Source: Candidatus Saccharimonadota bacterium (GTDB lineage: Archaea > Nanohalarchaeota > Nanosalinia > Nanosalinales > Nanosalinaceae). From it: a stretch of 32,000 nt of DNA. Numbering within the stretch: position 1 is the stretch's first letter; every line of letters begins with the position of its first letter. The notes beneath the pieces are model-generated. The model saw only the letters and a program-made list of their open reading frames with translations. It was not told the origin of the DNA and made no database searches. Where the stretch lies: contig CP012986.1 of the NCBI GenBank assembly GCA_001761425.1, positions 570,001 through 602,000 on the forward strand. The letters run 5' to 3'. Of the stretch, positions 6,701 to 30,529 are shown in pieces. A program made the position numbers and the translations under genes.

Positions 6701-6722
6701 ATTCACAGGAAACACCAAAGGC

Positions 6723-8175: not shown

Positions 8176-8250
8176 CGAACCCGCAGGGATTTGAACCCTG
8201 GGCCTAGCGGTCCGAAGCCGCTCGCTCTGTCCAGGCTGAGCTACGGGTCC
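8176..8250 (-). tRNA. tRNA-Arg (anticodon TCG)
   Basis: The reverse complement GGACCCGTAGCTCAGCCTGGACAGAGCGAGCGGCTTCGGACCGCTAGGCCCAGGGTTCAAATCCCTGCGGGTTCG folds by hand as a cloverleaf. It has a 7-bp acceptor stem, an AGCGG/CCGCT anticodon stem, loop CTTCGGA, and T-arm CAGGG-TTCAAAT-CCCTG. CCA is not encoded. Confidence 0.9.
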
Positions 8251-8316
8251 AGTCTAATATGTTTCAAAAGCTGAAAGGTTAAAAATCAGGTACGCAGATG
8301 GAGAGGGAAAAAGGCC

Positions 8317-9063: not shown

Positions 9064-9119
9064 TGTATTTTTTCACCTGTAAACTGTTTTTGGAGGTTTG
9101 TCTGTTTTCAACATTGCTG

Positions 9120-9533
9120 TTAGAATCTGTGTTCCTTCCAGGTGTAGACTGTCTCGAAGCCGTAGTTAAAGGCGAAGCCTATGCATACTCCTATGATGTT
9201 TGCTAGAGGATACCAGATTCCCAGCCTGACACCGGCTTCAAGGGCCACGAGTGAGATAAGAATGCCTCCTGTACGGACAAGATTCGATTTCAGGAAACGA
9301 GTCATGATCTTTCCCGGTTCGCCGCTGTAAGTGTATCTGTTGTTCAATATGAACATCGCAGCGATCGAGGCCTCAGCACCTACCAGCTTTGCGACCAGCA
9401 GAGGAGAATTCAGGATTTCAACCAGAAAGATCAGCACAACTGTCTCCAATCCAAGGCCTAATACACTGGTTGCACAGAACTTGATAGTTCTTTTCACATC
9501 TGCGACCGTCTCCAGTAATTTCTTTACTTCCAC
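9120..9533 (-). CDS. GtrA-like small polytopic membrane protein (putative lipid-linked sugar translocase)
   Basis: 137 aa with about four hydrophobic segments. Its start overlaps the upstream membrane-protein gene by 10 nt. It is the last gene of the GT2-containing operon. Confidence 0.5.
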   Translation of the reverse strand: MEVKKLLETVADVKRTIKFCATSVLGLGLETVVLIFLVEILNSPLLVAKLVGAEASIAAMFILNNRYTYSGEPGKIMTRFLKSNLVRTGGILISLVALEAGVRLGIWYPLANIIGVCIGFAFNYGFETVYTWKEHRF

Positions 9534-10921: not shown

Positions 10922-11613
10922 AAATTGATCCTCAGTTCCACAGTCTTTCTCAGAAAGTAAACTGAATCTCTGAAAACACTGACTTTCGAATCAGTGCTCT
11001 CCTCCCAGTCCACAGAAAACTCTTTCACATCCATATCTTTTCTCTGCGCTCTTACAAGCATCTCGGCATCCCAGAACCAGTGACTGCTCTCTACCTCGCT
11101 GAAAACATCCTCCACAGCCTCCGGGTCAAAGGCCTTGAACCCACACTGGTGATCTTTTATCATGGAGCCGAAGGCTTTTCTAATAAGTTCGTTGAAAACC
11201 ATGCTCGGCATCTCCCGTTTAAGACCTCTGTCAAGGCCTTTTTCTATTCTTCTGGAGCCTACTGCTATGTCATAGCCTTTTTCCAGATGTTTTCCTGCGT
11301 CTTCTATATGTTTCAGTTCTGTTGAAAGGTCTGCATCCGAGTAGACGAATTTTTCTGCCTCTACTTCTTGAAAGGCTTTTTCAAATGCAAGGCCTTTCCC
11401 CAGTCTCTTATCGAATTTCAGGTGTTTGATTTCTGGTATCTCTTTTTCCAGTCTGTCTGCTTCTTCCTGTGTTCCGTCGGTTGACCCGTCTGTCACTAAA
11501 ACTATCTGGAAAGGATCTATCTCGGTTTCTCTGAGGAACTCGATGGTTTTCTGTGCTGTATCCTCCAGTATCTCTACCTCGTTGTATACAGGGTAGACCA
11601 CTGCGAGTTCCAT
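10912..11613 (-). CDS. GT2 family glycosyltransferase (dolichyl-phosphate hexose synthase-like)
   Basis: VVYPVYNE..., VLVTDGSTDGT and SDADLS (DxD-type) motifs typical of DPM/DPG synthase-like GT2 enzymes. Confidence 0.8.
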   Translation of the reverse strand: MELAVVYPVYNEVEILEDTAQKTIEFLRETEIDPFQIVLVTDGSTDGTQEEADRLEKEIPEIKHLKFDKRLGKGLAFEKAFQEVEAEKFVYSDADLSTELKHIEDAGKHLEKGYDIAVGSRRIEKGLDRGLKREMPSMVFNELIRKAFGSMIKDHQCGFKAFDPEAVEDVFSEVESSHWFWDAEMLVRAQRKDMDVKEFSVDWEESTDSKVSVFRDSVYFLRKTVELRINLWR

Positions 11614-11745
11614 AAAAAATATTTCGTGGAGTAAAATAGTTTAAACCTATAACCTTTCTCTGAAGTCTTCAAAGCTGTCCAGTACATGTAACGTACTGTA
11701 AGACAGTTTTTAGGCCTTCAGACCGGCTTGAAGCTTTGTGACACG

Positions 11746-12003
11746 ATGAATATCGAATCAGTTGAACTGGAGGACGAATATTTTCATGTCAGGTTCAATG
11801 ATCCTGAGAGATTTGAGGCTATCCGCACGCCTGACTGGGCAGCGAACGTTGCAACATCGGTTTCAGAAGGTGCAGAGGTCAGAATGGGTAATGAAAAGGA
11901 AGGTGATGACTGGGAGGTCCAGTCGGTTCTTATAGAGAAAAGTGAAGGTGAGGAAAAGGCTAGAGAACAGGCACAAAGGATAGTTGAAAAATTAAATGAT
12001 TAA
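11746..12003 (+). CDS. hypothetical small acidic protein
   Basis: The ORF is open from TTG 11728 and the first ATG is at 11746 (MNIESVELEDEYFHVRFNDPERF...). Composition is typical of the proteome. I recognise no family. Confidence 0.45.
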   Translation: MNIESVELEDEYFHVRFNDPERFEAIRTPDWAANVATSVSEGAEVRMGNEKEGDDWEVQSVLIEKSEGEEKAREQAQRIVEKLND

Positions 12004-12013
12004 AAAAAGTTTT

Positions 12014-12373
12014 TTAGACTCCTGGGACTCCTATGGCTTCGAAACTGCCGATACCTAGGAAAGCCAGTAAGTACAGTATGACAAGGACTGATATCCAGGC
12101 AACCAGAGCTATACTGGCTGCGTTCACCCATCCGCCTTCGTACATCGAGTTGATAAGGCCTACCCAGGCCAGCAGTGTGATCAAAGGTCCTAGAAGAGGT
12201 ATCCATCCGAATAGAAATCCTACTACTGCCCAGACTATTGCTCCGAAGAGAGCAGTCATAAAGGCGTTTCCGAAATCCTCTGTCCCCAGGATTAGTTTAG
12301 CTGAGATATATATTCCTGTCGCTCCCAGTAAGAGGCCTATCAGGAAGACGATTATGGAATCAATCAGTGCCAT
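12014..12373 (-). CDS. hypothetical integral membrane protein
   Basis: 119 aa with about four hydrophobic helices. The overlapping plus-strand ORF (12033-12386) is basic and low-complexity, which is atypical for this proteome. Confidence 0.6.
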   Translation of the reverse strand: MALIDSIIVFLIGLLLGATGIYISAKLILGTEDFGNAFMTALFGAIVWAVVGFLFGWIPLLGPLITLLAWVGLINSMYEGGWVNAASIALVAWISVLVILYLLAFLGIGSFEAIGVPGV

Positions 12374-12390
12374 ATCCAGTAATTGACGTC

Positions 12391-12400
12391 TTTTATATAA
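12391..12400 (-). promoter_or_regulatory. TATA-like box (TTTTATATAA) upstream of the membrane-protein gene
   Basis: Centred about 23 nt upstream of start codon 12373. Confidence 0.3.
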
Positions 12401-12446
12401 ACGGATTGTTGCATCCTTTCACCGTTTTTCACGGTTTTCAGGTTAG

Positions 12447-12455
12447 TTTAATATT
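12447..12455 (+). promoter_or_regulatory. TATA-like box (TTTAATATT) upstream of the glucan phosphorylase gene
   Basis: Centred about 30 nt upstream of ATG 12480. Confidence 0.3.
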
Positions 12456-12479
12456 CGAGTCCGCAGAAGTTTGAACTAT

Positions 12480-14069
12480 ATGAGTCGCCAGATATCCTAT
12501 TTTACGATGGAGATAGGCCTCAAACCTGAGATAAAGACTTACAGTGGAGGCCTCGGTGTACTGGCCGGTGACACCGTGAAGGCGGCAGCTGATCACGACC
12601 TTGATTTCACCGCGGTCACACTTCTCTACAGGAACGGTTACTTTAGACAGAGGATTGAGGGAAAGGAACAGGTTGAAGAGCCTCAGAACTGGCCTTATGA
12701 AGAGATACTGGAGGATACCGGTGAGAAAGTCTCTATCAAGATCCGTGGAAGAACTGTCGATGTAAAGATCTGGCGGCATAAAGTAAAGGGAGAGAAAGGA
12801 GACGCTGAAGTCCTGTTCCTGGACACAGGCCTTGAATCCAACACAGAGGAAGACAGAGAACTTACCTCACAGCTTTACATGGGAGGACAGGAGAAAAGAC
12901 TCTGTCAGGAAGCGGTCCTCGGGATAGCAGGGGTCAAAGCACTCTGGGAAACCGACAAAGAAACAGATTACTACCACATGAACGAAGGCCACTCCGCACT
13001 CCTCGTAACCGAGGCCTCAGGAAAAAAAGTATTCACAACTCATACACCTGTTCCGGCAGGTCACGACACATTTCCACAGGATTTAGTCGAGAAAGTTCTG
13101 CCACAGGAGAAAATAGATGATCTAGGCCTTGAAGGAAAGCTTAACATGACTGAACTGGCTCTAGAAAACTCTACATACAACAATGCTGTCTCTGACAGGC
13201 ACGCAGAAGTTACAAGAGAGATGTTTCCGGGGTACGAGTTCGACGCGGTAACTAACGGCATCCACACAGATACATGGGTATCAGAGCCTTTCAAAAAGCT
13301 CTTCGACCAGGAAATAAACCGCTGGTGCCTCGACCCGGCAAGATTGACAAAAGTAGCAGGATTCAGCGACAGAAAACTGTGGGAAGCAAAGAAAAAATCA
13401 AAGAAAAAACTTTCTGAACTCCTGAAACAGAACACGGGTCAAGGCCTCAACCCTGAAACATTTACAGTGGGCTTTGCCCGTCGAAGCACTTCCTACAAGA
13501 GGCCTACCTTGATCTTCAGGGATGTGGACAGGCTTGATTCTCTGGCCGAAGATTATGGTGGCTTACAGCTTGTATTTGCTGGAAAAGCCCACCCTGATGA
13601 TGTAGAAGGCAAAGACCTTATAAAACGTGTTCTGGAGTATGCTGGAATGCTTGAAAATGTCGAGGTCTACTTTGTAGAGGACTACGGAATGGGTGAAGCT
13701 TCCAGGATGGTTTCAGGTGTGGATCTATGGCTTAACAATCCTGAACGTGGTAAAGAGGCATCAGGCACCTCAGGTATGAAAGCTGCGTTAAACGGTGCTC
13801 CCCAGCTTTCAACTCCTGACGGCTGGTGGCTTGAAGGACATGTCGAGGGAGTGACCGGATGGGATATTGGCGAAGACTACGTTGAAGGAGAGGATGAAGA
13901 ACTGATTGACAGCCGTTCTATCTACGAAAAGATGGATAGAATCCTCTCTATATACCATAACGACAGAAAGGCCTGGATAAAAATTATGAAAAACTGCATA
14001 ACATTGAACGCCTCACATTTCAACACAGACAGAATGCTGAAAGAGTATCTGGCCAGAGCCTACAAGTAA
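12480..14069 (+). CDS. glgP: alpha-glucan phosphorylase (GT35 family)
   Basis: YFTMEIGL...YSGGLGVLAGD...LLYRNGYFRQ at the N-terminus, plus the PLP-lysine motif EASGTSGMKAALNG. The ORF is open from TTG 12471 and the first ATG is at 12480. Confidence 0.85.
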   Translation: MSRQISYFTMEIGLKPEIKTYSGGLGVLAGDTVKAAADHDLDFTAVTLLYRNGYFRQRIEGKEQVEEPQNWPYEEILEDTGEKVSIKIRGRTVDVKIWRHKVKGEKGDAEVLFLDTGLESNTEEDRELTSQLYMGGQEKRLCQEAVLGIAGVKALWETDKETDYYHMNEGHSALLVTEASGKKVFTTHTPVPAGHDTFPQDLVEKVLPQEKIDDLGLEGKLNMTELALENSTYNNAVSDRHAEVTREMFPGYEFDAVTNGIHTDTWVSEPFKKLFDQEINRWCLDPARLTKVAGFSDRKLWEAKKKSKKKLSELLKQNTGQGLNPETFTVGFARRSTSYKRPTLIFRDVDRLDSLAEDYGGLQLVFAGKAHPDDVEGKDLIKRVLEYAGMLENVEVYFVEDYGMGEASRMVSGVDLWLNNPERGKEASGTSGMKAALNGAPQLSTPDGWWLEGHVEGVTGWDIGEDYVEGEDEELIDSRSIYEKMDRILSIYHNDRKAWIKIMKNCITLNASHFNTDRMLKEYLARAYK

Positions 14070-18533: not shown

Positions 18534-18542
18534 TTTATTTTT
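18534..18542 (+). promoter_or_regulatory. TATA-like box (TTTTATTTT) upstream of the giant gene
   Basis: Centred about 27 nt upstream of ATG 18565. This supports ATG 18565, rather than TTG 18541, as a leaderless start. Confidence 0.35.
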
Positions 18543-18564
18543 GGACGGCTCTCTTATTGTATAC

Positions 18565-21500
18565 ATGGATTCAGGTAAAATCTCGAAGCTCCTCCTGATT
18601 TTCCTCATCTTAGGCCTCATCCCTCTCTCAGCTTCTATATCAGAGGTTGACGTTCTCGTAGTTAACGATGGACACACCCTGGATCCATCGGCATCGGTAG
18701 ATTATAGCCAGGAGGTCGATGAGAATTTTGAGGATATCTACAACGAGTCTCTTAAATCTATACAAGGGGTGGATGTAGATTATAGTAAGACTTCGGACGA
18801 TGAAAAGGAATCCGGACCTTCTCTGGAGACTATGAACCAGTATGACATGGTTGTCTGGTACACTTTAGCAGATAGTGCTAGTTCTCCGGGCGGTTTCAAA
18901 ACTCTAACCAGTACTGATGAAGAAAATGTTCGCGAGTATCTGGATCAGGGGGGGACTTTCTATCTGACGGGCCATACCCTAGATGATGAGGAATCTCTTT
19001 ACGGTGAAGGAGATTTTTTCAGGGAGGTCATGAATGCCAGATACAAGGATAATGATGGAAGTCCAAATTACTGGAGGTTTACTGATAGAGGCTCAAATGA
19101 TGGAGAGGATTGGGAGTATGTACAGGTAACTGACGGGGCACTTTCAGATACGGATAGAATGCTGTTCGATCAGGACGGGAAAATTGTCCTGACAGGAGAA
19201 GACTCTCATGCTATAACTGAGGATATGTCCTTTGAACTCAATACATCCACTAACCCCCCAAGCTCTCTGGGAGTCCTGACCGATAACTGTTACCATGAAC
19301 AAGACAATGAGACCGAACTCGATCAGTGTGATCCTAATCCTTGGCAAAACGCAGATGATGGTCTCAGACTAGTCAATAACAAACCTGTAGCTGATAGTAA
19401 GGGTGATACTGTAGATAAGGAAAATGTCAACATAAACGGAGCGGGTGATTCCAGCAGGATCACAGTAGACTACAGCGAGAGCCCTGACATGAAAACCGTA
19501 GCTGGAGTTGCTGTAAAAGATTCTAAAGACGTTGAAATGGAGCATTTTGACATCAGTAACGATGAAGGAAGTATTAAGAAGCTGAAGTCTATAGAAACCG
19601 AAGCCTTTGACGTCTACACGTTTCTTATAGACGATCAGTCCGACGGAAATGCAGAGTTCCTATTTAACGATACTGCAAGGCTAGCAGCTATTACTGTAAC
19701 TGTGAAAAACGCTGTAGGAGCCTATCCTGCGACTGATGTAACTACCAAAAGTGCTCCGGAGGATATCAGTACTTCCGTAGAAAGCCAGGATGGGGACAGG
19801 GTTATAGACTTCCTGGCAGCCTCGGATAGTCCTAGCACAACAAATGACGAAATGAACGATATGGCCACTACCAATCTAGGAGGTAGCTCTACTTTCTTAA
19901 CCAAAAGATTGGAAGGTTCCGACCCAGAGAGAACTATGGGATACAGCGGGCCGGAAAACATGGCCCACATAGTAATCAACCTCAGAAAGGATAGGGCTGA
20001 CGCTGAATACTATGTAGAGACTGATGGCTATGAAGACAACGGAGAGCCGGCAAGCAATCCAGGAAACAGCAATAATCAGGCAGATTACCCTGATGAGTAC
20101 GCTCACACACTTGTGAACTCTAGAGAAGATAAGTACAGGACTTTGGTCAGTTCTATTGGCTTCGAATCTATCAAGGGAGAACAAAGCAGGAAGCAACTAA
20201 TGGATAACACTCTAAGATTTCTTACAGGTCCGGTCGCCAATAATACAAGAGTTTACTCAGGAGAAAATATACCGGATAGCGGTGCAGACGAGTCAAGATA
20301 CACTAACAGCACGCTAAATATTGAAGCTGAGGGAGAAAACCTTCAGCAAAATCCTTCAGGCCTCAGACGTGCACGCTTCCTGCATGAAGGAACTCCTCAG
20401 GAATTTAAGCCTACCTTTGAATCAGGATTTGATAACTTCACGGAAGCTAATCAGACATGGGAAGGCGATTCTGAAGATGGAGGTTATGCAACTGTAACTA
20501 GATCATGCGGGGTAAAGAAAGGAGATCAGGTCTTAACACTCTATGCAAGAGACGACGAAACTTTGTTAGATTCTCGCGATGATGTAGCTGCTGTGAGGAT
20601 GTCAGAACCTGTGGACGTATCAAATCACCAGAATCTTGTGCTTGAATTTTATGTCTCGGACGATGGAGTTGATTGCGATGAGCCTGAATACGATTATGGC
20701 GAGCATCTCGATGTTATGTACAAAAATAATAATGGCTCCTATAGTAGGGCCAGAACAATCTATGCTGAATCTGACAACGTTAACTGGAGGAAGGTTCAGG
20801 TAGAGATTCCCGTGGATCGCAATGATCAGTTCAAGGTAAAGTTTAAGACTAGGGAAATGGATGTTGGTGATGCCTGGCTTGTAGATGAGGTTGAGATCAA
20901 TCAAGGCCTTAGTTTAACCGATGGAAGATGGGGAGACCAGAAAGAAAGTGTGGAAGGCTTTATCAACGCTACTAAAGCTGTTGATAACCTTGATTCCAAT
21001 CCTCGAGGAGTGAATCTCACCTATGGCGTCCAGTTTAAGGATGATTCCAACCAGGGTTACTGGGGTGTTCCGGAGAAAAGATGGGTCAAAATTGATACGG
21101 TCCCTCCTAATTCTCTGACAGATGTGAGTTTCGAAGATGACTATACCTCAGATGAAACTGTTAATATTTCGGTTACAAATGACTTCATACTTGAAAAAAG
21201 GGCGAACCTGACCAGGTTCAGCTGTGATCCTGAAAATGGAGAGTGGTCGGAGTGGAGAACGAGAGATAGTCAACAGGTGAGTCAGAAGTTTGAAATAGAT
21301 ATCACTGATCAGGCCTTGGGGTGCAGTGATTCTCAGGGTAACAGGACGATAAGTGTTCAGACAAGGGATTATGCAGGGAACCGTGCTCCGGAGATCAAGA
21401 AGGACTGGATAATCTATGATGCTGAAAGACCTGATTTCCTGGGTGCAAGGCCTGGGAACAGGTCTGCCGTTCAGTCGGATGTCACTGTGAATATCACAGC

Positions 21501-24500
21501 TTCCGATAACTTCGGGATTTCTGACAGGTTTACGGAGTATAATGCTGGACAGGAGGACAGTATCTCTTTCACTCCGAACGAGACTGTAGGGCTTGATTTC
21601 ACTGGTGAAGGCTGGAGGACCCTTGAGGCCTGGATCTATGACAGGGCGTCGAATCTCAGGGAGGTGAGCCTTGACTACGATATCGATGATACTGCTCCCT
21701 GGGTCAACGTTACTCCTGAAAGTAATAACGAGCCTAAAAACGATACTGCTGTGAAGCCGGATGAAACGTTCAGGATTGAGGCCTTTGACAGGAATTTTGA
21801 GTCTCTGACCGTGAATTCTGTAGGTAACAGTACTTTTTCGAATAATGTCAGTGACTTTGATCCTGAGTGGTCTGGTGGAAAGGTCAGGGATCTTGAGGTC
21901 TGGTTGAATGATTCTGCCGGTAACCAGCGTTTCAGGAATTACAGCTATACTGTTGATGGTCAGGCTCCTGTCTCTGAAGCGGTTGATACGGCTAATGAGA
22001 GTTATGTGAAGAGTGATGATGTTTTGAAGTTCAACTTTTCGGACTCCACTTCCGGAGTTGAAGGTGTCTCCACTTCCAAGGACAGGGAGAGAGGGGTTGA
22101 CTGGGATCTTGGTGTAGGCTTTGGCTCGGATGCCAGTGGGGAGACCGATCTATCTGTATCTGCGACTGACCGTGCTGGAAACACTTTGACGGAGAATTAT
22201 ACCTATACTCTGGACGATGAGCCTCCGGTCGCCGAAACCAATTACAGCCGGGAGGCAGATTCCACGGATGGATGGTTCAACAGAGACGTGGAGGTCGAGG
22301 TAAACGCCACGGATAACCAGGAGCTAGATACGATTATCTACGGTTCCAGCAGGGATGGAAGTGTATCAGCACCTGAACTTACAAGTAACACGAACACCAG
22401 TATCAAGGTCACCTGTCCGAATTCAAACATCTGTGAAAAAGTTGTAACTTACAACGCCAATGATTCGGCGGGCAACTACTTCCGGGATTCCTACAGAGAA
22501 TCCGAGACAGTTTCAATCGATAAGAAAGCACCTCTGATCGAAATAGGATCTCTCACACAGTCAGGCCTCATCGAGATAGAATCAGAAATCAGAGATCCTG
22601 GTATCGGAGTCCAGGACGCAAGCTTCAGAGTCCTCAACAGGAGCGATACATCACAGGTTCTCGAGTCAGGAGACCTGAACGAATCGAATAACTGGTCCTA
22701 CATCTGGGACTCGGAACAGGATATAGACAGCACACAGGAAGTCACTCTCAAGATAGAGGCCGAGGACAGGTTCCAGCAAAACAGCACAGAACAGACCGAG
22801 TTCAAAGTTGAGAACGAGAAAACAACAGCAACCATAACAAATCCGGAAGACGAGATAGTATCCGACAACTTCGACCTCTCAATAGAGGCTAACAGGCCTG
22901 GAAACTCCGAAGGGCTTAAATGGCATAACTTCACGGTGGATAGGAACGGAGAAGAGGTCTACAGCGAATCAAAGAGCCTTGAAGGAGCCGATACCCATCT
23001 TTTCGACAGGCAGTTCGATACTACAGAGCTGGATGGCGACGGTAATTACAGTTTGAATACTACTGCACTGAGCAATGGGACATCAGAGTACGCAACGGCT
23101 GAAAAATGGTTCTACCTTGATACCAGGCCTCCAGAGGCCTTGATCGAGACGGATATCAACGATTCATGGGTCACAGGAAGGATAGAGATAGATTTCGCCG
23201 CCTCGGACAGTGTGGGCAACGGAACCCTAGAATCTTACTACATGAATGACTCTGACTGGCAGAGAATGAACAAGAACCTGAACTACTCGGATAAGGCCTT
23301 CAACTTCAGTACCTCCGACAGATGTCAGGACTCTGCCTCGAATACCTGTGGAGTCAAGATCGTCGCTGAGGATAAGGCAGGTAACCTTAACAGCTCAATG
23401 GTGGAGTTCAAAGTCGATAACAGTCCTCCGGAAGTTGATCTGACCGCACCGGATGCTGAGTGGCAGAACTCGAACTTTAACGTAGCCAGAAACATCAGTG
23501 ACAATGTAGTTGACTCGAGAGATCTCTACTGTGAGGTGAAAGTTAACTCTACAGGATGGCGGGAGACACAGCTCTGTAACACCAACTACACTGTAGATAT
23601 CTCGGAAAGCTGCGACAGGGAAGGAGGAATATGTCAGGTCGAGATAAATGCCTCCCATCCAGAACTTCCGCTATACCAGACAGATCAGAAGTTCTACTCC
23701 ATAGACACAGAGCAACCAGAAATATACACAGGACCGGAGCCAGCACCAGAAACAGTAATCAACGGCAGCGAAGATATAAGCCTAGGATTCCAGGAACCGA
23801 CCTCAGACATGAACTACTCGAAATGGGACGAAGGAAAAGGCCTGAAAGACCTGGAAACCGACCAACCTTTCAAGCCAGGATGGACCGAAAACGGAAACCG
23901 GACTTTGGAAATACTGCTGAACGACACGGCAGGAAACCTCAGAACAGAGCAGTACATATACACCTTCGACAACAAAGCCCCAGAACTCCAGAACTCAGGC
24001 CTCTCCGTATCAGAAGACGGATTCTTCGACGAAACCAGGGTGTACAGGGGAGAAGAGATCAAGCTGGAGCTGAACGTATCCGAGAACATAGAGATGGAAA
24101 AAGTTACTGCCGAGATAAGCAGCGATGGGGAAAACTGGAACAAATCACTTCAACTCGAGGAAGGAAACCTGACCGAAGGCCTCTGGACCAAAAACCTGGC
24201 CAATACGACAACAGGCCTCTACACCGTCCAGAAAGTGTACCTGGAAGATAGAGCAGGGAACAGAACCAGGGTCTCCTCAAGCCTTCCGGAGTTCAGGATC
24301 ATGAACTACTCCGAAAACGTTGAGATAGGTGGAATGAAAGAAGTAGATGCAGGGAACAGCACGGATTTCAACTACACAGTAGATTTCAACAGGACTCAAG
24401 GAGAGAGGCAGCTCAAAGTCTACGTTCCGCCCTCCGGTCCGGGAGAAACCTTTGACCCATACTTCCAGCTGGAAAACGTATCCTGTAAAACATCAGAATG

Positions 24501-27500
24501 TAACGTGACCCATCAGGAAAACTTCTTTAACCTATCATACACCGGAGGAAGCCCTGAGGTATCGGTGACAGCTCATTCAGAGGCCTTCACTCCTGAACAA
24601 GATACTGAAGGTAATTTCACATCTCAACTGCTTGATAACACGAGGAAGAGCGAGGTAAAGATCAGTGCTCCCGAACTGGAGATAAACAGCAGTTCCTGTA
24701 GTCCTGCATGTACGCTGGACCAGTTTGACAGCTTCAACCTGACCCTCGAGCCAGTGAACAATATGACATCTACCAGCACCGGTACAGCCCTGAACACGAG
24801 TCTCTCTATCTCCTCTGGAGGCCTCGAGGATAGATCGAGAGAACTTGGAAACCTTGGAACTGGAGAAAATCTCAGTGAGAGGTTCGCGGATATCTCATCG
24901 GACGAGGCAGGAAACTTCACCTATGACGCTGTCCTCGAGGATGCTACAGGAGTTTACAGGGACTCAAAGGAGATCGAGGTAGAGTTCCTGGACGCAGAGG
25001 AACCCGATATTGTTGATGCAGGGCCTTCCTCCAGAAGAGTAAACGTCAACGACTCCATAGATCTTCTGGCAGAACTAACCGACAACGTCGAAGTCGCCGA
25101 TGCAAACCTGACCCTTGAATATCCGAACGGCACGGCACAGAACCTCTCCCTGGACAGAGACATAGAAAACGAATGGGCAAACTCTTTCAACAAAACATCT
25201 GAAAAAGGAATCTACCAGCTCAAAAAAGTCTATGCCTCAGACCGGAGAGAAAACACAAACCAGACCACGCTCAACTCACAGTTCAAGGTGACAGAACTCA
25301 GACTCAACTCCTCTGTTTCAAAGACCAATATACAAAACCGGGAAGCTGTCAACTTCACAGTAAACATAACAGGAAACTCCACAGAAGTCCAGAGAGTCAC
25401 GGTAAACGCGTCCACACCAGAAGGCCTCAACCGGTCCAGAGAATACACCGATGTAGGCCTCAACAACACTCTTAAATTCGACCGGTTCGATAACTCAGGA
25501 AACTACTCCTTCAACGTCACGGTAAACGCAGGCCTCAAAGTCACTAATCAGACCTCAGACGTCTTCGTCAGGTACGGGAACAGCTCAGTAGAATCTCTGG
25601 ACTCAGGAAACAACAGGACTCTGGAGATACCGGAGACCATAAGTTCAGCATCCCTTGAATGGAGACTCACACCGATCAACGGGAGCCTGAAAAACCTCGC
25701 CTTCGAGCCCGGTTCAAATGACGAAACAGTTCTCAGCACAGGATCTGCCCAGAGTGTAGATGATCTCGTCTACACTGAAGGAGCAAGGACCGAACAGCTT
25801 ACAGTAAACCCGGAAAACACAGGATCAGCAGATATAACAGCTATCCTCGAGGCAGAAAACGGAGGAAACACGAGTAAACAAGTCTCCGTAGAAGTCACAG
25901 AACAGGACAATGAAAGGCCTCAGATCAACTCCTTCAACCTATCGGAAAAAGACTTGAACCTTAATGAAACACTCGATTTCTCTGCAAATATAACAGACAA
26001 CTCGATAATCAAAAACTCAACGCTAGAGATCGGCTATCCTAACCCGTCAAACGCTACAGAGACCATAAACATGGAGAGAATCGGAGAACAGACCTATCAA
26101 ACGGAGTTCAACAACCTGAACCAGACAGGAAATTACACAGCAACTCTCAAGGCCTACGATATCTCCGGAAACAGCTACATGGTCGCAGAGAATTTCACAG
26201 TCACCGATAGATACAGTATAGAGATCGATACCGACAAAAGCATATACATGAAGGAAGAAGATGCGGTCATAAGCTTCGATGTCCTGGACGCAAGCGGAGA
26301 TCAGGTCAAAAACTACAGCCTGAACTCCTCGATAGAATACAGCAACTCCAATCATTCACTGGTCGAAGGCCAGAACGTTTCAAGGACAGAGTTCACAGTT
26401 GAAAGAGATTATCCGCCAGATATAACCAATGAACTTGGCGGAGACCCTATCTACTACAGCATATACGCTGAGGCCTCAAGCAGAGGAAACAAAGGAAAGG
26501 CCTCGGCCAGCATGCCGGTTCACAGGGTATTCGACGTAAGTCTGAACAACGATCAGTACGTTGCTCCAGGTGAGAACTTCCTCGTGACCTCTGACTGGAG
26601 AAAGAAGAATGGAGAGCTTCTGCCTCAGACATGGCAGCCGTTTATACTCTGTGATGCCTGTCCAAGCAACTACAAACTCATGTTGAGAGATCTGGAGACA
26701 GATAATTATGTCAAGAACTTGACAGCCCCGAACCAGACAGGCAGCTATTCCTTCACGCTCAGAGGTTCATACCAGGGTAACTCGGAGAGCCAGGATCCTA
26801 CAGGTGCGGAGGACGAACCTCCATTCGGCACATTCGAAGTCGTACCAGGCGGGAAACCGCCGAACAGTGGCGATGAGGAACAGGCTCTGCCTTCAGGAGG
26901 CGGTGGAGGATTCTCTGGAGGAGGGCCTTCGATGGAGATTGTAAGACGGTCGCCTCCTCCAAGCATCCCTTCGGGAACCGAACAGGTGAACCTGTCTGTG
27001 AACACCAATATCGCGGCCGAATGCGTTTATTCAAGGAACAGGGTTCCAGAGGCCGTCCCATTCGATGAGGCCTCAGATTTCCAGGAAACCGGCGGAGTGA
27101 ATCACAGCACGCCGTTAACTGCAGAAGAAGGTGTGACGTACAGCTACAACATTATGTGTGCCTCTGGCGAAGCCAACTCGACCCAGGAGATTATTTTCTC
27201 CACAGAAACTCTGGAAGGCTTCTCATACGCAGGCCCTACATCAGTCACGCCAAACAACGAGTCCGTATCACAGAAAGGAAACTACAGTGCAAGAGTAGCT
27301 GTCTACAACGAGAAAAGCGAGGCCTTGACCGTAGACCTGGACGTCGAGGGAACCTGCTGCAACCTGAGCTTTATGATCGGCTCAGAGAAGAAAGAATCGG
27401 TCACGATACCGGCTGAAGGAGAGAAAAACCTGGATCTGAACGTCTACTCCCCGCTTCATGTAAAACCAGGATCCTACAACGGGACCCTAAAATTAACAAG

Positions 27501-28215
27501 TCCAAACGAATCGACCAGCAGGCCTATAAATTATCAAGTCAGCCGACACTCAGCAGTTGAAAACTACACCGATCTCAGGACACGTGCAGGAATCCTCAAC
27601 TCCACCATCAGCGACTACAGGATCGCAGGAATAGATACCTCAAACATGGAAAAGGCCTATCAAAACCTGACATCTCATCTAGAAGAGGCAAACTCCTCCA
27701 TCCAAAGAGATGACCTTCAGGGCCTTAAGGCCTCAGTTGTCGAAGCCAGATCTGACGCTGAAACAGTTAGAAAGATGCTCGATAACGCCTCCTGGAAGAA
27801 ATACATCTTGTTGAACTGGTGGAAGTGGGCAGCAGGATTTGTAGGTCTGTATATTTTGTTCTTCCTGGCTGTGATGGTTGGAATACCATACTACAGGATC
27901 CAGACAGAGCTGACAAGGATTAACAGCCAGTTGGAAAGTGCTGTGGACGCAAGAAAGAAAGGAGAGAAACAGTACTTCCAGAGAAAGATCGACAAGGATA
28001 CATTCAACGAAATGATGACAGAAAGACAGAATGAGGTACTCCAGCTACGCGGAGACAAAGAAGATCTTAAAGAAGAGCTGGACGGGTTCTTAATGAGCAA
28101 ACTTACGCTGGAGAATTACCTGAAAGCACCGTGGAAAGGCATGGAGGAAATGGAGAAATGGTGGGCAGCCAACAGAAAGGCCCGCCAGAACCTCAAAGAT
28201 GAACAAGAAGAATAG
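18565..28215 (+). CDS. giant (~3,216 aa) membrane-anchored, sequon-rich cell-surface protein / putative adhesin
   Basis: A single uninterrupted ORF. The N-terminal signal-like sequence is MDSGKISKLLLIFLILGLIPLSAS. Next come a ~600-aa N-terminal module and a jelly-roll/MAM-like module (~20410-20905). A tandem array of ~90-110-aa Ig-like units follows, marked by D-x-x-(A/P/Q)-P boundaries and D-x-(A/S)-G-N motifs. Later elements are a Gly-rich linker (PSGGGGGFSGGGPS), a single C-terminal TM helix (AAGFVGLYILFFLAVMVGIPYY, ~27829-27895), and a ~105-aa charged coiled-coil tail. I counted about 118 N-x-S/T sequons by hand. Confidence 0.85.
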   Translation: MDSGKISKLLLIFLILGLIPLSASISEVDVLVVNDGHTLDPSASVDYSQEVDENFEDIYNESLKSIQGVDVDYSKTSDDEKESGPSLETMNQYDMVVWYTLADSASSPGGFKTLTSTDEENVREYLDQGGTFYLTGHTLDDEESLYGEGDFFREVMNARYKDNDGSPNYWRFTDRGSNDGEDWEYVQVTDGALSDTDRMLFDQDGKIVLTGEDSHAITEDMSFELNTSTNPPSSLGVLTDNCYHEQDNETELDQCDPNPWQNADDGLRLVNNKPVADSKGDTVDKENVNINGAGDSSRITVDYSESPDMKTVAGVAVKDSKDVEMEHFDISNDEGSIKKLKSIETEAFDVYTFLIDDQSDGNAEFLFNDTARLAAITVTVKNAVGAYPATDVTTKSAPEDISTSVESQDGDRVIDFLAASDSPSTTNDEMNDMATTNLGGSSTFLTKRLEGSDPERTMGYSGPENMAHIVINLRKDRADAEYYVETDGYEDNGEPASNPGNSNNQADYPDEYAHTLVNSREDKYRTLVSSIGFESIKGEQSRKQLMDNTLRFLTGPVANNTRVYSGENIPDSGADESRYTNSTLNIEAEGENLQQNPSGLRRARFLHEGTPQEFKPTFESGFDNFTEANQTWEGDSEDGGYATVTRSCGVKKGDQVLTLYARDDETLLDSRDDVAAVRMSEPVDVSNHQNLVLEFYVSDDGVDCDEPEYDYGEHLDVMYKNNNGSYSRARTIYAESDNVNWRKVQVEIPVDRNDQFKVKFKTREMDVGDAWLVDEVEINQGLSLTDGRWGDQKESVEGFINATKAVDNLDSNPRGVNLTYGVQFKDDSNQGYWGVPEKRWVKIDTVPPNSLTDVSFEDDYTSDETVNISVTNDFILEKRANLTRFSCDPENGEWSEWRTRDSQQVSQKFEIDITDQALGCSDSQGNRTISVQTRDYAGNRAPEIKKDWIIYDAERPDFLGARPGNRSAVQSDVTVNITASDNFGISDRFTEYNAGQEDSISFTPNETVGLDFTGEGWRTLEAWIYDRASNLREVSLDYDIDDTAPWVNVTPESNNEPKNDTAVKPDETFRIEAFDRNFESLTVNSVGNSTFSNNVSDFDPEWSGGKVRDLEVWLNDSAGNQRFRNYSYTVDGQAPVSEAVDTANESYVKSDDVLKFNFSDSTSGVEGVSTSKDRERGVDWDLGVGFGSDASGETDLSVSATDRAGNTLTENYTYTLDDEPPVAETNYSREADSTDGWFNRDVEVEVNATDNQELDTIIYGSSRDGSVSAPELTSNTNTSIKVTCPNSNICEKVVTYNANDSAGNYFRDSYRESETVSIDKKAPLIEIGSLTQSGLIEIESEIRDPGIGVQDASFRVLNRSDTSQVLESGDLNESNNWSYIWDSEQDIDSTQEVTLKIEAEDRFQQNSTEQTEFKVENEKTTATITNPEDEIVSDNFDLSIEANRPGNSEGLKWHNFTVDRNGEEVYSESKSLEGADTHLFDRQFDTTELDGDGNYSLNTTALSNGTSEYATAEKWFYLDTRPPEALIETDINDSWVTGRIEIDFAASDSVGNGTLESYYMNDSDWQRMNKNLNYSDKAFNFSTSDRCQDSASNTCGVKIVAEDKAGNLNSSMVEFKVDNSPPEVDLTAPDAEWQNSNFNVARNISDNVVDSRDLYCEVKVNSTGWRETQLCNTNYTVDISESCDREGGICQVEINASHPELPLYQTDQKFYSIDTEQPEIYTGPEPAPETVINGSEDISLGFQEPTSDMNYSKWDEGKGLKDLETDQPFKPGWTENGNRTLEILLNDTAGNLRTEQYIYTFDNKAPELQNSGLSVSEDGFFDETRVYRGEEIKLELNVSENIEMEKVTAEISSDGENWNKSLQLEEGNLTEGLWTKNLANTTTGLYTVQKVYLEDRAGNRTRVSSSLPEFRIMNYSENVEIGGMKEVDAGNSTDFNYTVDFNRTQGERQLKVYVPPSGPGETFDPYFQLENVSCKTSECNVTHQENFFNLSYTGGSPEVSVTAHSEAFTPEQDTEGNFTSQLLDNTRKSEVKISAPELEINSSSCSPACTLDQFDSFNLTLEPVNNMTSTSTGTALNTSLSISSGGLEDRSRELGNLGTGENLSERFADISSDEAGNFTYDAVLEDATGVYRDSKEIEVEFLDAEEPDIVDAGPSSRRVNVNDSIDLLAELTDNVEVADANLTLEYPNGTAQNLSLDRDIENEWANSFNKTSEKGIYQLKKVYASDRRENTNQTTLNSQFKVTELRLNSSVSKTNIQNREAVNFTVNITGNSTEVQRVTVNASTPEGLNRSREYTDVGLNNTLKFDRFDNSGNYSFNVTVNAGLKVTNQTSDVFVRYGNSSVESLDSGNNRTLEIPETISSASLEWRLTPINGSLKNLAFEPGSNDETVLSTGSAQSVDDLVYTEGARTEQLTVNPENTGSADITAILEAENGGNTSKQVSVEVTEQDNERPQINSFNLSEKDLNLNETLDFSANITDNSIIKNSTLEIGYPNPSNATETINMERIGEQTYQTEFNNLNQTGNYTATLKAYDISGNSYMVAENFTVTDRYSIEIDTDKSIYMKEEDAVISFDVLDASGDQVKNYSLNSSIEYSNSNHSLVEGQNVSRTEFTVERDYPPDITNELGGDPIYYSIYAEASSRGNKGKASASMPVHRVFDVSLNNDQYVAPGENFLVTSDWRKKNGELLPQTWQPFILCDACPSNYKLMLRDLETDNYVKNLTAPNQTGSYSFTLRGSYQGNSESQDPTGAEDEPPFGTFEVVPGGKPPNSGDEEQALPSGGGGGFSGGGPSMEIVRRSPPPSIPSGTEQVNLSVNTNIAAECVYSRNRVPEAVPFDEASDFQETGGVNHSTPLTAEEGVTYSYNIMCASGEANSTQEIIFSTETLEGFSYAGPTSVTPNNESVSQKGNYSARVAVYNEKSEALTVDLDVEGTCCNLSFMIGSEKKESVTIPAEGEKNLDLNVYSPLHVKPGSYNGTLKLTSPNESTSRPINYQVSRHSAVENYTDLRTRAGILNSTISDYRIAGIDTSNMEKAYQNLTSHLEEANSSIQRDDLQGLKASVVEARSDAETVRKMLDNASWKKYILLNWWKWAAGFVGLYILFFLAVMVGIPYYRIQTELTRINSQLESAVDARKKGEKQYFQRKIDKDTFNEMMTERQNEVLQLRGDKEDLKEELDGFLMSKLTLENYLKAPWKGMEEMEKWWAANRKARQNLKDEQEE

Positions 28216-28250
28216 AACTCTTTTTCAAGGGGCGGAACAAACAAAATATT

Positions 28251-29786
28251 ATGCCTGGAAACAAGGTCGCAGTAACACAGTTCAAGAAAAAAGACAACGG
28301 CTCTGGAAAAGAGGTACAGGTATCCTTCCAGAACCAGTCAGACGACCTTTTCTACGACTTCATTAACTTCTACTCCGGCAAGAAAAACCTGGACACAGAA
28401 CTACTTGACCTCGCACCAGGAGAAGTCAAAAACATAACGGTAAAGGCCTCAGACCTCAAAGGGAGACTCAAAATCTCCAAAGACAGCTTCAACTCTGGCG
28501 TAATATTCAGAGAAGGAGAGGACGCAACAGAAAAACAGCTGGTCCCAAATAGCAACCAGAAAACCGGAGAAAAAAAGGCTTCAAGACAGAAAAAGGCCTC
28601 TGAACAGGAAAAAAATCTTTTCGACAGAGCTATGGAAGGTGAAATCGAGCCTCCACATCTGAAGGAAAAACTCGGTAGAGAAGTACCAGACCTCTCAGAA
28701 ACTGTAAAAGAGATGAAAGAAAAAACCCTGGAAACTGTAGAAAAAGAAAAGAAACCATCACGGAGCAAGAACTCAGAAGAAAAAAATATTACCGAAAATC
28801 CTGGACAAGGCCTTGAAAAAGGCTCTGAGGATAAATTGGATGTAGATGAAAATGAAAATAATGAACATGAAGGAGACGAACACAGACATGAAGAGGTCGA
28901 GAACAGATCGCTTCTGGATTCTTTGATACATCCGTTTACTCATCCTCAGCCCGTGGAGAGGCCTGAAAAACAGGTTGAAGAAACGACTGAAGAAGATGAG
29001 GAGGCCTCTGATGACGGTGAAGATGAGGATGTGCTGGTGACTGAGAAGAACGATTACAGCACTGAAAGAGTTACCACTGGTGCTCTTAATCTTGATAACA
29101 AGATGGAAGGTGGTTTTGTCAAAGGCACTATGAACTTGATCACGGGTAAGACAGGTACGGGTAAGACTGCGTTCTGTTCGAACTATATCTGGGAGGGTGC
29201 GAAAAAAGGAGAGCCAGGAGTTTATGTAACGACAGAAGAGAGGGAGGAGGATATACTCGAGGATATAAACTCGATGTTCGGCTGGGACTTTGATTCGCTT
29301 GCTGGACAGGACAAGGTCCGTGTATTATCCATCAAACCTGTTTTCCCCAGCCAGAATATGGACAACATTTCCAGGATCGTCAGAAGCTATATTTCAGACC
29401 TCCTGGACCAGGTAAACGATGCTATAGAAGAGATAGGAGCAGAAAGAGTAGTAATCGATTCAGTCTCACTTGTACAGATGTTCATACAGGATGAATACAT
29501 GTCACGTGTCGCCCTGTCCAGCCTGATGAACAACCTGAGAGAAGCCGGAGTCACCGCAGTCCTGGTCGGATCCATACCAGAAACCTCGGAAGGCCTGTCA
29601 AAAGAGGGCATCATAGAGTACCTGGTGGATACAGTCATACTGCTGGAGTTCGTACCAGTCGCAGAAGACTACAATAGAACACTGAAGATACGTAAGATGC
29701 GTAGAACCGACCATGAAACAGATATCTTTCCTTTCGAGGTTACAGCGGACGGACTGGAAATCCATGAGGCTTACGAATCTTTATAG
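28251..29786 (+). CDS. KaiC/RecA-superfamily ATPase with unique N-terminal domain and long charged disordered linker
   Basis: The C-terminal ~240 aa has Walker A GKTGTGKT, Walker B VVIDSV, and ...KIRKMRRTDHETDIFPFEV. Residues 1-100 form a beta-rich domain I cannot place. Residues ~100-270 are a K/E/D-rich low-complexity region. There is no signal peptide or TM segment. Confidence 0.75.
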   Translation: MPGNKVAVTQFKKKDNGSGKEVQVSFQNQSDDLFYDFINFYSGKKNLDTELLDLAPGEVKNITVKASDLKGRLKISKDSFNSGVIFREGEDATEKQLVPNSNQKTGEKKASRQKKASEQEKNLFDRAMEGEIEPPHLKEKLGREVPDLSETVKEMKEKTLETVEKEKKPSRSKNSEEKNITENPGQGLEKGSEDKLDVDENENNEHEGDEHRHEEVENRSLLDSLIHPFTHPQPVERPEKQVEETTEEDEEASDDGEDEDVLVTEKNDYSTERVTTGALNLDNKMEGGFVKGTMNLITGKTGTGKTAFCSNYIWEGAKKGEPGVYVTTEEREEDILEDINSMFGWDFDSLAGQDKVRVLSIKPVFPSQNMDNISRIVRSYISDLLDQVNDAIEEIGAERVVIDSVSLVQMFIQDEYMSRVALSSLMNNLREAGVTAVLVGSIPETSEGLSKEGIIEYLVDTVILLEFVPVAEDYNRTLKIRKMRRTDHETDIFPFEVTADGLEIHEAYESL

Positions 29787-29815
29787 AAAACCACTGTTTG
29801 TGCGGGAGAAATATA

Positions 29816-29842
29816 GAGAAAAAATGTTTTTAAGGCCTTTTT
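29816..29842. terminator. bidirectional oligo-T/oligo-A region between the convergent KaiC-like genes
   Basis: GAAAAAATGTTTTTAAGGCCTTTTT contains two T5 runs on the plus strand and one T6 run on the minus strand. Confidence 0.35.
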
Positions 29843-30529
29843 CTAGAATCCGGCCTGTTCTTTCATCTTGATTCCATTATCTGTTATCTCTACAGGATGT
29901 GTTCCCGGTGTGTGATCTGTTCTTCTCATTTTTCTGACTTCGATGTTTCTGAAGCTTCCTTCTCCCATCGATTCGTAGTAAAGGGCTACTACTCCGTCGG
30001 CTACGAACTCAGATACGTTTGATCGGGAAAGTGAGTTCTCACTGTTTTCAGGGATCTCTGCTGTCATGATTACTGTTGAGTCGGATTTCCTGAGCATTTT
30101 GACCAAGTCCTGAAGGTTTCTTCTGACTTCAAATTTGTCGCCCCAGTAAGTGGTGAAGACGCTCATCGAGTCCAGTATCACCCGGTCATAGTCTCCGCTG
30201 TGAAGTAACTGTTTAACCTGTCCAGAAAGATACTGGTTTTCAGACGGCTCACTGTACTCCATCCTGAGATCTCCCTCATCCTCATGCTTCCTAAGATCCC
30301 ATCCAAATACAACAGCATCATCCCTGATAGCTTCGATAGGCTCCTCAGTAGAAATATACAGACATTTCTGCCCCTTACTGATTCCCTCCATCAAGAACTG
30401 GTTACAGAAAGTAGTCTTACCCGTACCTGTACCGCCTGAGATCAAAGTAACAGAACTCTCCGGAAAACCACCGTCAATCAAATCATCAAGGCCTTCAATC
30501 CCCGTCGTAATTCTCTCAACTTCAGTCAT
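29843..30529 (-). CDS. KaiC/RecA-superfamily ATPase, single domain
   Basis: GIEGLDDLIDGGFP, Walker A GGTGTGKT, Walker B VILDSM, and ...EVRKMRRTDHTPGTHPVEI. It is 228 aa. Confidence 0.8.
   Translation of the reverse strand: MTEVERITTGIEGLDDLIDGGFPESSVTLISGGTGTGKTTFCNQFLMEGISKGQKCLYISTEEPIEAIRDDAVVFGWDLRKHEDEGDLRMEYSEPSENQYLSGQVKQLLHSGDYDRVILDSMSVFTTYWGDKFEVRRNLQDLVKMLRKSDSTVIMTAEIPENSENSLSRSNVSEFVADGVVALYYESMGEGSFRNIEVRKMRRTDHTPGTHPVEITDNGIKMKEQAGF

Follow-up and report, generated by a model that had tools for sequence, protein, structure and literature searches.

Contig CP012986.1 (assembly GCA_001761425.1), which has a nanohaloarchaeal GTDB lineage, carries a group of three genes that we analyzed within a stretch of 32,000 nucleotides (nt; contig positions 570,001 to 602,000, forward strand). 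This whole stretch is called the window in this report. A gene for a very large surface protein is followed on the same strand by a gene for a long KaiC-family ATPase, and a gene for a second, shorter KaiC-family ATPase converges on the latter (Table 1). Because the genes for the large protein and the long KaiC are linked in both directions across phyla, because the cytoplasmic motif of the surface protein is its most conserved part, and because no other gene is broadly co-conserved with them, we conclude from these comparisons that the genes form a functional cassette, which comprises two genes generally and three in Nanohaloarchaeota. The conserved unit is an anchor module of approximately 280 amino acids (aa) in the large protein together with one orthologous KaiC.

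A preliminary description of the region, made from the sequence alone, had reported a transmembrane (TM) helix followed by a charged cytoplasmic tail of ~105 aa, a KaiC-like gene that starts 35 nt downstream at 28251, a run of five T residues (T5) at 28221-28225, an N-terminal domain of ~100 aa and a disordered charged linker of ~170 aa in the encoded ATPase, and a second KaiC-like ATPase encoded convergently 56 nt beyond. All of these features were recovered in our analysis, with the boundaries listed in Table 1. The true start of the large gene is probably the ATG at 18568, which would yield a protein of 3215 aa, because near-identical contigs call a protein of this length. This ATG is situated nine codons inside the longest open reading frame (ORF), just ahead of a signal-like hydrophobic segment. 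The T-runs in the spacer between the two KaiC genes probably represent bidirectional terminators.

Table 1. Features of the cassette. Positions are in nt from the first letter of the window; residues of the large protein are counted from the TTG codon.
Feature	Position	Strand	Comment
Large surface-protein gene	18541..28215	+	3224-aa ORF from TTG 18541
Module: predicted extracellular β-sandwich with conserved Cys-Cys pair	27280..27543	+	residues 2914-3001
Module: predicted extracellular three-helix bundle (stalk)	27550..27813	+	residues 3004-3091
Module: single TM helix	27820..27900	+	residues 3094-3120; invariant Pro 3116 at its end (P263 in the alignment)
Predicted cytoplasmic tail	27901..28212	+	residues 3121-3224; 104 aa, 42% charged
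Spacer, large gene to long KaiC gene	28216..28250	+	35 nt exactly
Long KaiC gene	28251..29786	+	511 aa
Long KaiC, N-terminal β-sandwich domain	28251..28520	+	residues 1-90
Long KaiC, disordered acidic linker	28521..29045	+	residues ~91-265
Long KaiC, RecA-fold KaiC domain and stop codon	29046..29786	+	residues 266-511
Long KaiC, Walker A motif	29145-29168		GKTGTGKT
Long KaiC, Walker B motif	29448-29462		VVIDS
Long KaiC, catalytic TTEE			residues 327-330
Convergent spacer, long KaiC/short KaiC	29787..29842	.	56 nt; T-runs on both strands
Short KaiC gene	29843..30529	-	228 aa; convergent with long KaiC gene

Conservation of the gene pair was assessed in both directions. The forward comparison covered 46 genome loci that encode relatives of the long KaiC, and used hidden Markov models (HMMs) for the KaiC domain and for the C-terminal region of the large protein. 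Each of the 12 Nanohaloarchaeota loci that include upstream sequence encodes a homologue of the large protein directly ahead of the KaiC gene and in the same orientation, and 11 of these 12 have a convergent short KaiC gene downstream. The trio with a convergent KaiC orthologue was also found at loci L093, L096 and L099-L104. The genes that flank the trio differ between Nanohaloarchaeota lineages, with an AI-2E transporter and DUF502 gene in one case versus NTPase_1 and arginyl-tRNA synthetase genes in the other. At 32 loci from other DPANN archaea, mostly Aenigmatarchaeota, the KaiC is a plain protein of ~240 aa; a module gene lies directly upstream of it at 10 of these loci and nearby at four more.

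The reverse comparison was made without any KaiC information, by scanning metagenome contigs with the cytoplasmic motif of the module alone (EKQYFxR[KQR]I). The module alignment A2 is too divergent for such a scan, and the narrower alignment A3 was used. Fifty loci with at least 500 nt of downstream sequence were evaluated, of which one KaiC-positive locus has 564 nt. In 44 of the 50, a KaiC of the primary clade (see below) is encoded within 600 nt downstream on the same strand, and in one additional locus a KaiC gene is adjacent but on the opposite strand. The spacers mostly range from -26 to +55 nt. When the results are taken together, 66 pairs are available, with a median spacer of 23 nt and overlapping genes in 18; collapsing the set at 90% KaiC identity leaves 46 distinct pairs. 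A KaiC gene likewise follows the gene for the largest module protein, a β-helix protein of 6221 aa.

It had been proposed beforehand that the tail and the KaiC-like ATPases belong together, and a lack of synteny in relatives had been named as an outcome that would refute this proposal. We found that synteny is retained across Nanohaloarchaeota and extends, in both directions of comparison, into DPANN archaea of the Aenigmatarchaeota type. The more specific proposal of a unit that consists of one giant and two KaiCs applies within Nanohaloarchaeota, but elsewhere the unit is the module and one KaiC. Judging from these distributions, three features are additions that became fixed in Nanohaloarchaeota only, namely the second KaiC and, in the long KaiC, the acidic linker and the β-sandwich at the N-terminus. 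Clustering of all neighboring ORFs yielded no third gene family that is broadly co-conserved. Recurrent neighbors of ~90 aa and ~400 aa were considered as members of the unit and rejected, as they correspond to ribosomal protein L35Ae and a nucleotidyltransferase-type gene in lineage-specific synteny. Recurrent neighbors in general are housekeeping genes of the respective lineage, for example, those for L35Ae and aIF5B.

The anchor module was delineated from the C-terminal part of the large protein. BLAST comparisons with the upstream proteins of relatives showed that the part shared across phyla comprises ~300 residues at the C-terminus. When the last 371 residues were used as query, an exhaustive HMMER search identified 174 cluster representatives that carry the module, always at the C-terminus, in proteins that range from 200 to 6221 aa; a word-index search with the same query gave two matches. 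The module consists, in order, of a β-sandwich, a three-helix bundle, a TM helix and a cytoplasmic hairpin. An AlphaFold2 model of the 371 residues has a predicted local distance difference test score (pLDDT) of 86.8. In this model (q denotes a position in the 371-residue query), the strands of the β-sandwich lie at q61-148 with a pLDDT of ~90, and N70, C86 and C87 are among the best-conserved alignment columns. The stalk comprises helices at q151-175, 181-202 and 206-238 with a pLDDT above 95, and contains a motif, GVDV..L...A..SI..DD, that is conserved in alignments A2 and A3. Foldseek searches of solved structures with the β-sandwich returned only generic matches of Ig, PapD or macroglobulin type, and no solved structure resembles the module as a whole. 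No Pfam family was consistently matched by the module in 24 members, even at E-values up to 1.

Hydropathy analysis of the large protein identified two hydrophobic segments only, namely the N-terminal signal-like segment and the TM helix of the module. N-x-S/T sequons occur at a frequency of 38.7 per 1000 aa before the TM helix versus 5.5 in the other proteins of the window, and the tail has none. This distribution fits an exported, N-glycosylated ectodomain joined to a cytoplasmic tail, and the gene product is probably a Sec-exported and heavily N-glycosylated surface protein. The sequon distribution and the confident AlphaFold2 model together support the predicted topology.

The tail had previously been interpreted as a coiled coil. 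The AlphaFold2 model agrees that it is helical, but does not depict one long coiled coil. Rather, the TM helix runs on into the cytoplasm as one long helix (q240-293), and two further cytoplasmic helices follow it to make a hairpin or bundle. The membrane-proximal ~68 aa of the tail is the best-conserved part of the whole protein. The final ~35 residues (WWAANRK...), which the preliminary description had quoted, are lineage-specific and conserved in close relatives only. In the window, the membrane-proximal part contains the signature R..GEKQYF.RKIDKDTF..MM...Q..L.LR (nt ~27952-28104). The family consensus just inside the membrane is PY.RL..EI..L...E..LV..R..TEKQYF.R.IDE.TF..IM...Q..IL..R, in which the Pro, Arg and Phe are invariant. 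Alignment positions R285, Y292, F293, R295 and F302 show little or no variation; Y292, F293 and F302 correspond to Y3145, F3146 and F3155 of the large protein. Mean column information in this segment is 2.11 bits, versus 1.47-1.88 bits in the other parts of the module, and approximately half of the 20 best-conserved module positions fall within it. Divergence of the hairpin correlates with divergence of the KaiC protein (Spearman coefficient 0.69, compared with 0.36-0.54 for the other module parts); this correlation is confounded by shared phylogeny, and offers weak support for a link between hairpin and KaiC.

Whereas the TM helix and tail are 75% identical between the window and its Nanohalobium orthologue, the ectodomains are only 35% identical. 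The ectodomain of the large protein is variable and acidic, and across the family the module is attached to otherwise unrelated ectodomains. Adhesin-type domains recognized in the ectodomains of relatives include PA14, laminin-G/Big_3, NosD/β-helix repeats and Ig/PKD/cadherin-like domains. Because a complete member of 711 aa exists, with its own signal peptide, large size is not a requirement for a module protein. A "mini" module protein at L103 was rejected, as its ORF is cut by the contig end. A separate observation concerns the opposite end of the protein. A region of ~140 aa near the N-terminus (residues ~30-177; window positions 18630-19070) is likewise retained across phyla, with 26-42% identity at L010, L013, L016 and L036 and no Pfam match, and may be a further domain common to these proteins, situated at the distal tip.

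Both ATPases are clear members of the KaiC family (PF06745; cut-off 26.6 bits) and cover almost the whole profile. The long KaiC matches at residues 274-507 with 197.2 bits (E = 3e-58), and the short KaiC matches with 205.3 bits (E = 1e-60). The short KaiC carries a Walker A motif (GGTGTGKT), STEE and ILDS, and the Walker A and B motifs and the catalytic Glu pair are retained across orthologues, both in alignment A1 and in a wider set. The KaiC domain is 89% identical to that of the Nanohalobium orthologue, and the short KaiC 89.5%. The nearest solved chains are those of KaiC and of the single-domain Pyrococcus proteins PH0186 and PH0284, which form hexamers, and by homology the KaiC protein would form a hexameric ring as well. 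In a neighbor-joining tree, the KaiCs adjacent to module genes, from halophilic and nonhalophilic organisms alike, form one clade (the primary clade), outside of which the "second" KaiCs fall. The closest nonhalophilic relatives of the long KaiC of the window are the KaiCs of loci L013-L015.

AlphaFold2 predicts that residues 6-87 of the long KaiC fold as a seven-stranded β-sandwich (pLDDT above 90) and that disorder begins at residue 92 (pLDDT below 50). Structure searches with this N-terminal domain by using Foldseek gave only generic FnIII-like matches (E ~4e-3). The domain is present in all Nanohaloarchaeota homologues and absent from the ~240-aa orthologues elsewhere. The linker is acidic across homologues, and its length in alignment A1 varies from 0 to more than 400 aa. 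At one locus from a close relative of the window (L091:2130-2700), the reading frame of the KaiC domain differs from that of the N-terminal half of the long KaiC gene. The result is an apparent spacer of 571 nt that still codes for the N-terminal domain, and either a pseudogene with a frameshift or an error in the assembly accounts for it. Inteins with a LAGLIDADG homing endonuclease interrupt KaiC homologues of 702-715 aa (P0050, P0051) from related DPANN contigs, and an intein with a LAGLIDADG domain is also present in a T2SSE ATPase of 1041 aa (L105:13015-16140).

In the 35-nt spacer between the large gene and the long KaiC gene, directly after the stop codon of the large gene, is a 15-nt element, AACTCTTTTTCAAGG, that holds the T5 run. 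The ATG of the KaiC gene is located downstream of CTTTTTCAAG. The 15-nt element is conserved along with its flanks at L001, L091 and L093, although the large proteins are only ~36% identical. It is located 23-32 nt upstream of the KaiC ATG, which is the distance expected of a TATA box for a leaderless mRNA. In other lineages, AT-rich boxes stand out more clearly, 25-35 nt ahead of the KaiC start. We therefore view the T5 run, whose presence is not in doubt, as part of an element that may be a TATA-like promoter element rather than the terminator that was envisaged originally, or an oligo-T terminator, or both. By the same evidence, KaiC may have its own promoter in some lineages. In other lineages the genes overlap and therefore must share one promoter.

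The remaining genes of the window are those of an ordinary chromosome, including GatB, pyruvate kinase, NAD synthase, thioredoxin reductase and glycosyltransferase genes, and the next gene beyond the short KaiC gene encodes an AI-2E transporter. The database proteins nearest to those of the window are from Nanohaloarchaea archaeon SW_7_46_7 and Nanohalobium. One gene (3383-4279) encodes a 298-aa protein in which an aminoacyl-tRNA editing (YbaK-like) domain is joined to a GatB/YqeY domain at the C-terminus. The GatB gene (1618-3024) is nearby, and a small cupin-domain ORF (3031-3375) lies between the two genes.

Some observations were made on the neighborhoods of related loci. Upstream of the module gene, additional predicted surface proteins are often encoded that have CWB2, NosD/β-helix, PKD, Big_9 or cadherin-like domains (L010:196-2295; L017:2-1645; L060:2-1597; L063:3-1337; L065:1-1632), and the cassette therefore tends toward cell-surface gene neighborhoods. 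In a nonhalophilic sublineage (L017, L060, L065 and L066; for example, L060:4718-8058), three to four additional genes lie between the primary KaiC gene and a second, convergent KaiC gene. These intervening genes encode two small proteins without a Pfam match, a UbiA-family prenyltransferase and sometimes a flavin adenine dinucleotide-dependent oxidoreductase. A DUF7523-like gene is found a few kilobases (kb) from the KaiC gene at L014:4730-5422, L015:8632-9324, L101:18101-18658 and L104:15492-16052; the matches in Aenigmatarchaeota-type loci are weak (E ~1e-4), and recurrence in both groups may be coincidence.

KaiC-family proteins form rings and act as switches that depend on nucleotide or phosphorylation. 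We hypothesize that the anchor and the KaiC form a self-contained cassette in which KaiC docks on the cytoplasmic hairpins and thereby controls the surface protein, an interpretation to which we assign slightly better than an even chance. A KaiC ring would dock on the cytoplasmic hairpins of the anchor much as ArlH docks on ArlX in the archaellum motor, and the nucleotide or autophosphorylation state of KaiC would set the clustering, assembly, stability or signaling of the surface protein. In Nanohaloarchaeota, the ATPase has gained a β-sandwich at its N-terminus, connected by a long acidic tether, and the other KaiC paralogue has become fixed alongside it, where this paralogue may serve as a partner ring or a regulator. 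That the output of such a cassette is an attachment switch is speculation.

A more elaborate version of this mechanism can be formulated, although we consider it doubtful that all of its parts hold together. According to this version, the cassette would be an ancient and hitherto unrecognized type of transmembrane device used throughout DPANN archaea, in which a KaiC ring grips the hairpins of several surface proteins and switches their clustering or conformation by ATP binding or autophosphorylation. The device would permit timed or signal-dependent attachment of obligate symbionts to their hosts, and detachment from them. Interchangeable ectodomains would set host specificity. In Nanohaloarchaeota, an extra level of regulation would come from the second KaiC and the tethered β-sandwich; separate genes might, for example, supply the two rings of a CI/CII-like oscillator or timer.

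Several observations weigh against a self-contained cassette with docked KaiC. The contact between tail and KaiC is putative and is modeled on ArlH-ArlX. Approximately 17 of the 32 nonhalophilic DPANN loci with an orthologous KaiC have no module gene nearby; an adjacent module gene is therefore not a strict requirement for KaiC, which may have a different main partner. In the reverse comparison, five to six module genes have no KaiC gene downstream. A TATA-like box appears in many spacers, so the two genes need not be co-transcribed. The large protein of the window matched no Pfam family in a Pfam scan, and the role of its own ectodomain as an adhesin is unproven; this putative role is suggested by domains in relatives, not by the sequence of the window itself. 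Most relatives derive from metagenome bins, and co-occurrence was judged at the level of individual loci. Finally, in the lineage of L013-L015, KaiC is encoded among the core genes of a type-IV-filament machine.

This last observation leads to the most serious rival explanation, namely that the cassette belongs, as a detached accessory, to a type-IV-filament (Tad/archaellum-like) machine. KaiC would be an ArlH-like regulator of a T2SSE ATPase and a T2SSF platform encoded elsewhere, and the module protein would act as a scaffold in the manner of ArlX or as an adhesin associated with the filament; even so, KaiC could still bind the tail. The gene orders at L013-L015 favor this explanation. At L013, the order is T2SSE ATPase, giant module protein, KaiC, small module-like protein, T2SSF and T2SSF, whereas L014 and L015 have KaiC followed by two T2SSF genes and lack a module gene. 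The KaiCs of these loci are, as noted, the nearest nonhalophilic relatives of the long KaiC, and at L105 a distant KaiC pair is encoded 2 kb from two T2SSF genes and a T2SSE gene. Published data point in the same direction. KaiC families among the archaeal clusters of orthologous genes are strongly tied to archaeal type IV pili loci (Makarova et al. 2016, PMC4858521), and Tad clusters with two kaiC copies are present in Nucleotidisoterales, one Nanohaloarchaeota order (PMC9563170). Moreover, the cultured Ca. Nanohalococcus occultus expresses the genes SVXNc_0962-0965, which are annotated as FlaI, RecA-superfamily ATPase, FlaJ and FlaJ (PMC10266531 Table S1); however, SVXNc_0963 may lie outside the primary clade. 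Also against this explanation, T2SSE or T2SSF genes are within reach at only three of ~98 primary-clade KaiC loci, none were found within 10-28 kb of the Nanohaloarchaeota trios, and the KaiCs of the window score 56.4 and 61.0 bits with the ArlH/FlaH model (NCBIfam NF052589), for which the cut-off is 215. On balance we consider the explanation unlikely. The link to filaments is a real lead but is not the general pattern, and it suggests an evolutionary connection of the cassette to type-IV-filament machines. The operon-like array at L013 (positions 253-13352, from an uncultured DPANN archaeon) encodes a module protein of 2709 aa and a module-like protein of 247 aa that lacks most of the ectodomain, and is the best candidate for an ancestral or complete form of the system. 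We also observed that a block of Sec61β, arginase and arginyl-tRNA synthetase (ArgRS) genes adjoins the trio at L104 and L101, and the same block adjoins the FlaI-KaiC-FlaJ-FlaJ cluster of Ca. Nanohalococcus occultus (SVXNc_0958-0965, PMC10266531 Table S1). This hints that the trio and the filament cluster occupy the same chromosomal neighborhood.

Two other explanations accept less of the proposed mechanism. KaiC might be a biogenesis or quality-control factor that drives insertion, folding, oligomerization or removal of the surface protein, a very large type-I membrane protein, through its tail, at the expense of ATP and without a part in regulation or signaling. The tight, operon-like linkage, the conserved tail and the intact catalytic residues are compatible with such a role, and ectodomains that are large and diverse make common handling through a shared anchor plausible. 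However, some orthologous KaiCs have no module gene beside them, and the pairing with KaiC persists for module proteins down to 711 aa in length. The known KaiC-family members are switches or regulators, and we know of none that acts as a membrane-protein chaperone or extractase. ArlH autophosphorylates but does not hydrolyze ATP (PMC8978795). We regard a biogenesis role as distinctly improbable. It is still less probable, to the point that we give it very little credence, that the genes are adjacent without a functional link and that the KaiCs act in DNA repair, as do RadB/Rad55-like proteins, or as a general signaling hub. Some homologues are named "RAD55 family ATPase" at NCBI, weak Rad51/RadB/RecA matches exist, and half of the nonhalophilic orthologues have no module gene nearby. 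Nevertheless, the KaiCs score 22.1 and 42.4 bits with the RadB model TIGR02237, whose cut-off is 172.4, and the pair is linked in two directions in at least two phyla, with differing flanks, short or overlapping spacers and 46 distinct pairs. In addition, the strongest constraint on the surface protein is cytoplasmic, which an unrelated neighbor leaves unexplained. Overall, the genomic unit of anchor module and KaiC is well supported by these comparisons, and the mechanism outlined for it is a proposal.

DPANN archaea live attached to host cells, and the control of this contact is a central open question. Attention so far has been directed to SPEARE-type giants and to pili. The proteins described here define a second and much more widespread class of anchored surface proteins that have a shared anchor and a dedicated cytoplasmic ATPase partner, and this arrangement suggests an undescribed way of controlling or assembling surface proteins. 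Cells probably use these large proteins for host attachment. A conserved motif of ~50 residues and an ATPase of 240 residues provide a testable handle, and the idea of KaiC-like signaling hubs is broadened to include a direct connection to the cell surface. Because Pfam has no entry for the module, it could become a new domain family, which would annotate hundreds of large "hypothetical" proteins.

No system with this architecture was known at the outset, and the literature that we searched contains no description of the anchor module or of its pairing with KaiC; the supplementary neighborhoods of Makarova et al. 2017 are outside that search. Several known systems and families were considered and rejected as identities. 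PADLOC returned weak, partial, P-loop-level matches to the anti-phage protein mad8 (E = 1e-7) and none for the module. A surface layer (S-layer) is unlikely to be the main explanation, given that S-layer glycoproteins of cultured nanohaloarchaea are annotated at other loci and that the DPANN S-layer is reported to be of a different fold class. Scores of the two KaiCs with the GvpD family (PF07088; 25.8 and 24.5 bits) are just at the cut-off of 24 and far below the KaiC scores, and no gvp genes are present in the window. Neither window KaiC reaches the cut-off of any archaeal KaiC equivalog. The circadian KaiC belongs to the same Pfam family and shares the Walker A and B motifs and the Glu pair, with solved-structure matches at E-values of 1e-48 to 1e-59. 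However, the window proteins have a single domain and not the CI-CII arrangement, score 110-160 bits versus cut-offs of 546 and 408 (TIGR02655/NF006799), and have no KaiA or KaiB genes beside them among the window ORFs in a Pfam scan.

In bacteria, a dedicated relay that spans the membrane gives the cytoplasm control over the display of a giant adhesin, as in LapA with LapD and LapG. The proteins of that system are unrelated, and involve a cyclic di-GMP receptor, a periplasmic protease and type I secretion. Here, by analogy only, the relay would be the adhesin's own anchor and a KaiC-type ATPase. SPEARE proteins are nanohaloarchaeal, 8,900-9,400 aa in length, and have a fused VirB4/TraG-like ATPase domain after the TM helix as well as a downstream VirB4/TraG gene (Hamm et al. 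2019; re-analyzed by Reva et al. 2023; PMC10266531). They share with the large protein of the window a very large size, Sec export, a membrane anchor, a cytoplasmic end that is (or, in the window, would be) coupled to an ATPase, and a second ATPase gene downstream. In contrast, the window protein has 3224 aa, a helical tail of 104 aa without a P-loop domain, and KaiC-family genes downstream, and is not a SPEARE protein. The cultured Nanohalobium (N. constans) is reported to lack SPEARE giants (PMC10266531), and the module-protein family is present in a Nanohalobium metagenome-assembled genome (L001).

The closest parallel is provided by the crenarchaeal archaellum motor, in which the KaiC-like protein ArlH attaches to ArlX. 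The latter is a membrane protein with a single pass, and its cytosolic, helical domain both binds ArlH and oligomerizes (PMC8978795). An analogy with ArlH/FlaH had been drawn at the outset, and this interaction makes it an apt one. In both cases, a single-domain RecA-fold protein of the KaiC family is encoded beside a single-pass membrane protein with a cytosolic helical domain, and the cassette at L013 is placed between T2SSE and T2SSF genes in the way that arlH is placed between arlX and arlI/arlJ. Differences are also evident. The ATPases of the window are not ArlH/FlaH, according to the scores given above. The topology is opposite, as the window protein has an N-terminal ectodomain and a C-terminal TM helix, whereas ArlX has an N-terminal TM helix; ArlX also has no counterpart of the extracellular β-sandwich and three-helix stalk. 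The Pfam scan of the window ORFs revealed no genes for archaellin, ArlF/G, ArlI or ArlJ. A broader precedent is the 2017 concept of archaeal KaiC-like ATPases as signal-transduction hubs, as cited in PMC5847659. The cassette resembles such hubs in that single-domain homologues reside in conserved neighborhoods whose input and output partners are diverse and extend to membrane and pilus systems (PMC4858521). By analogy, then, the cassette would work most like ArlH-ArlX, and it fits the concept of KaiC-like hubs.

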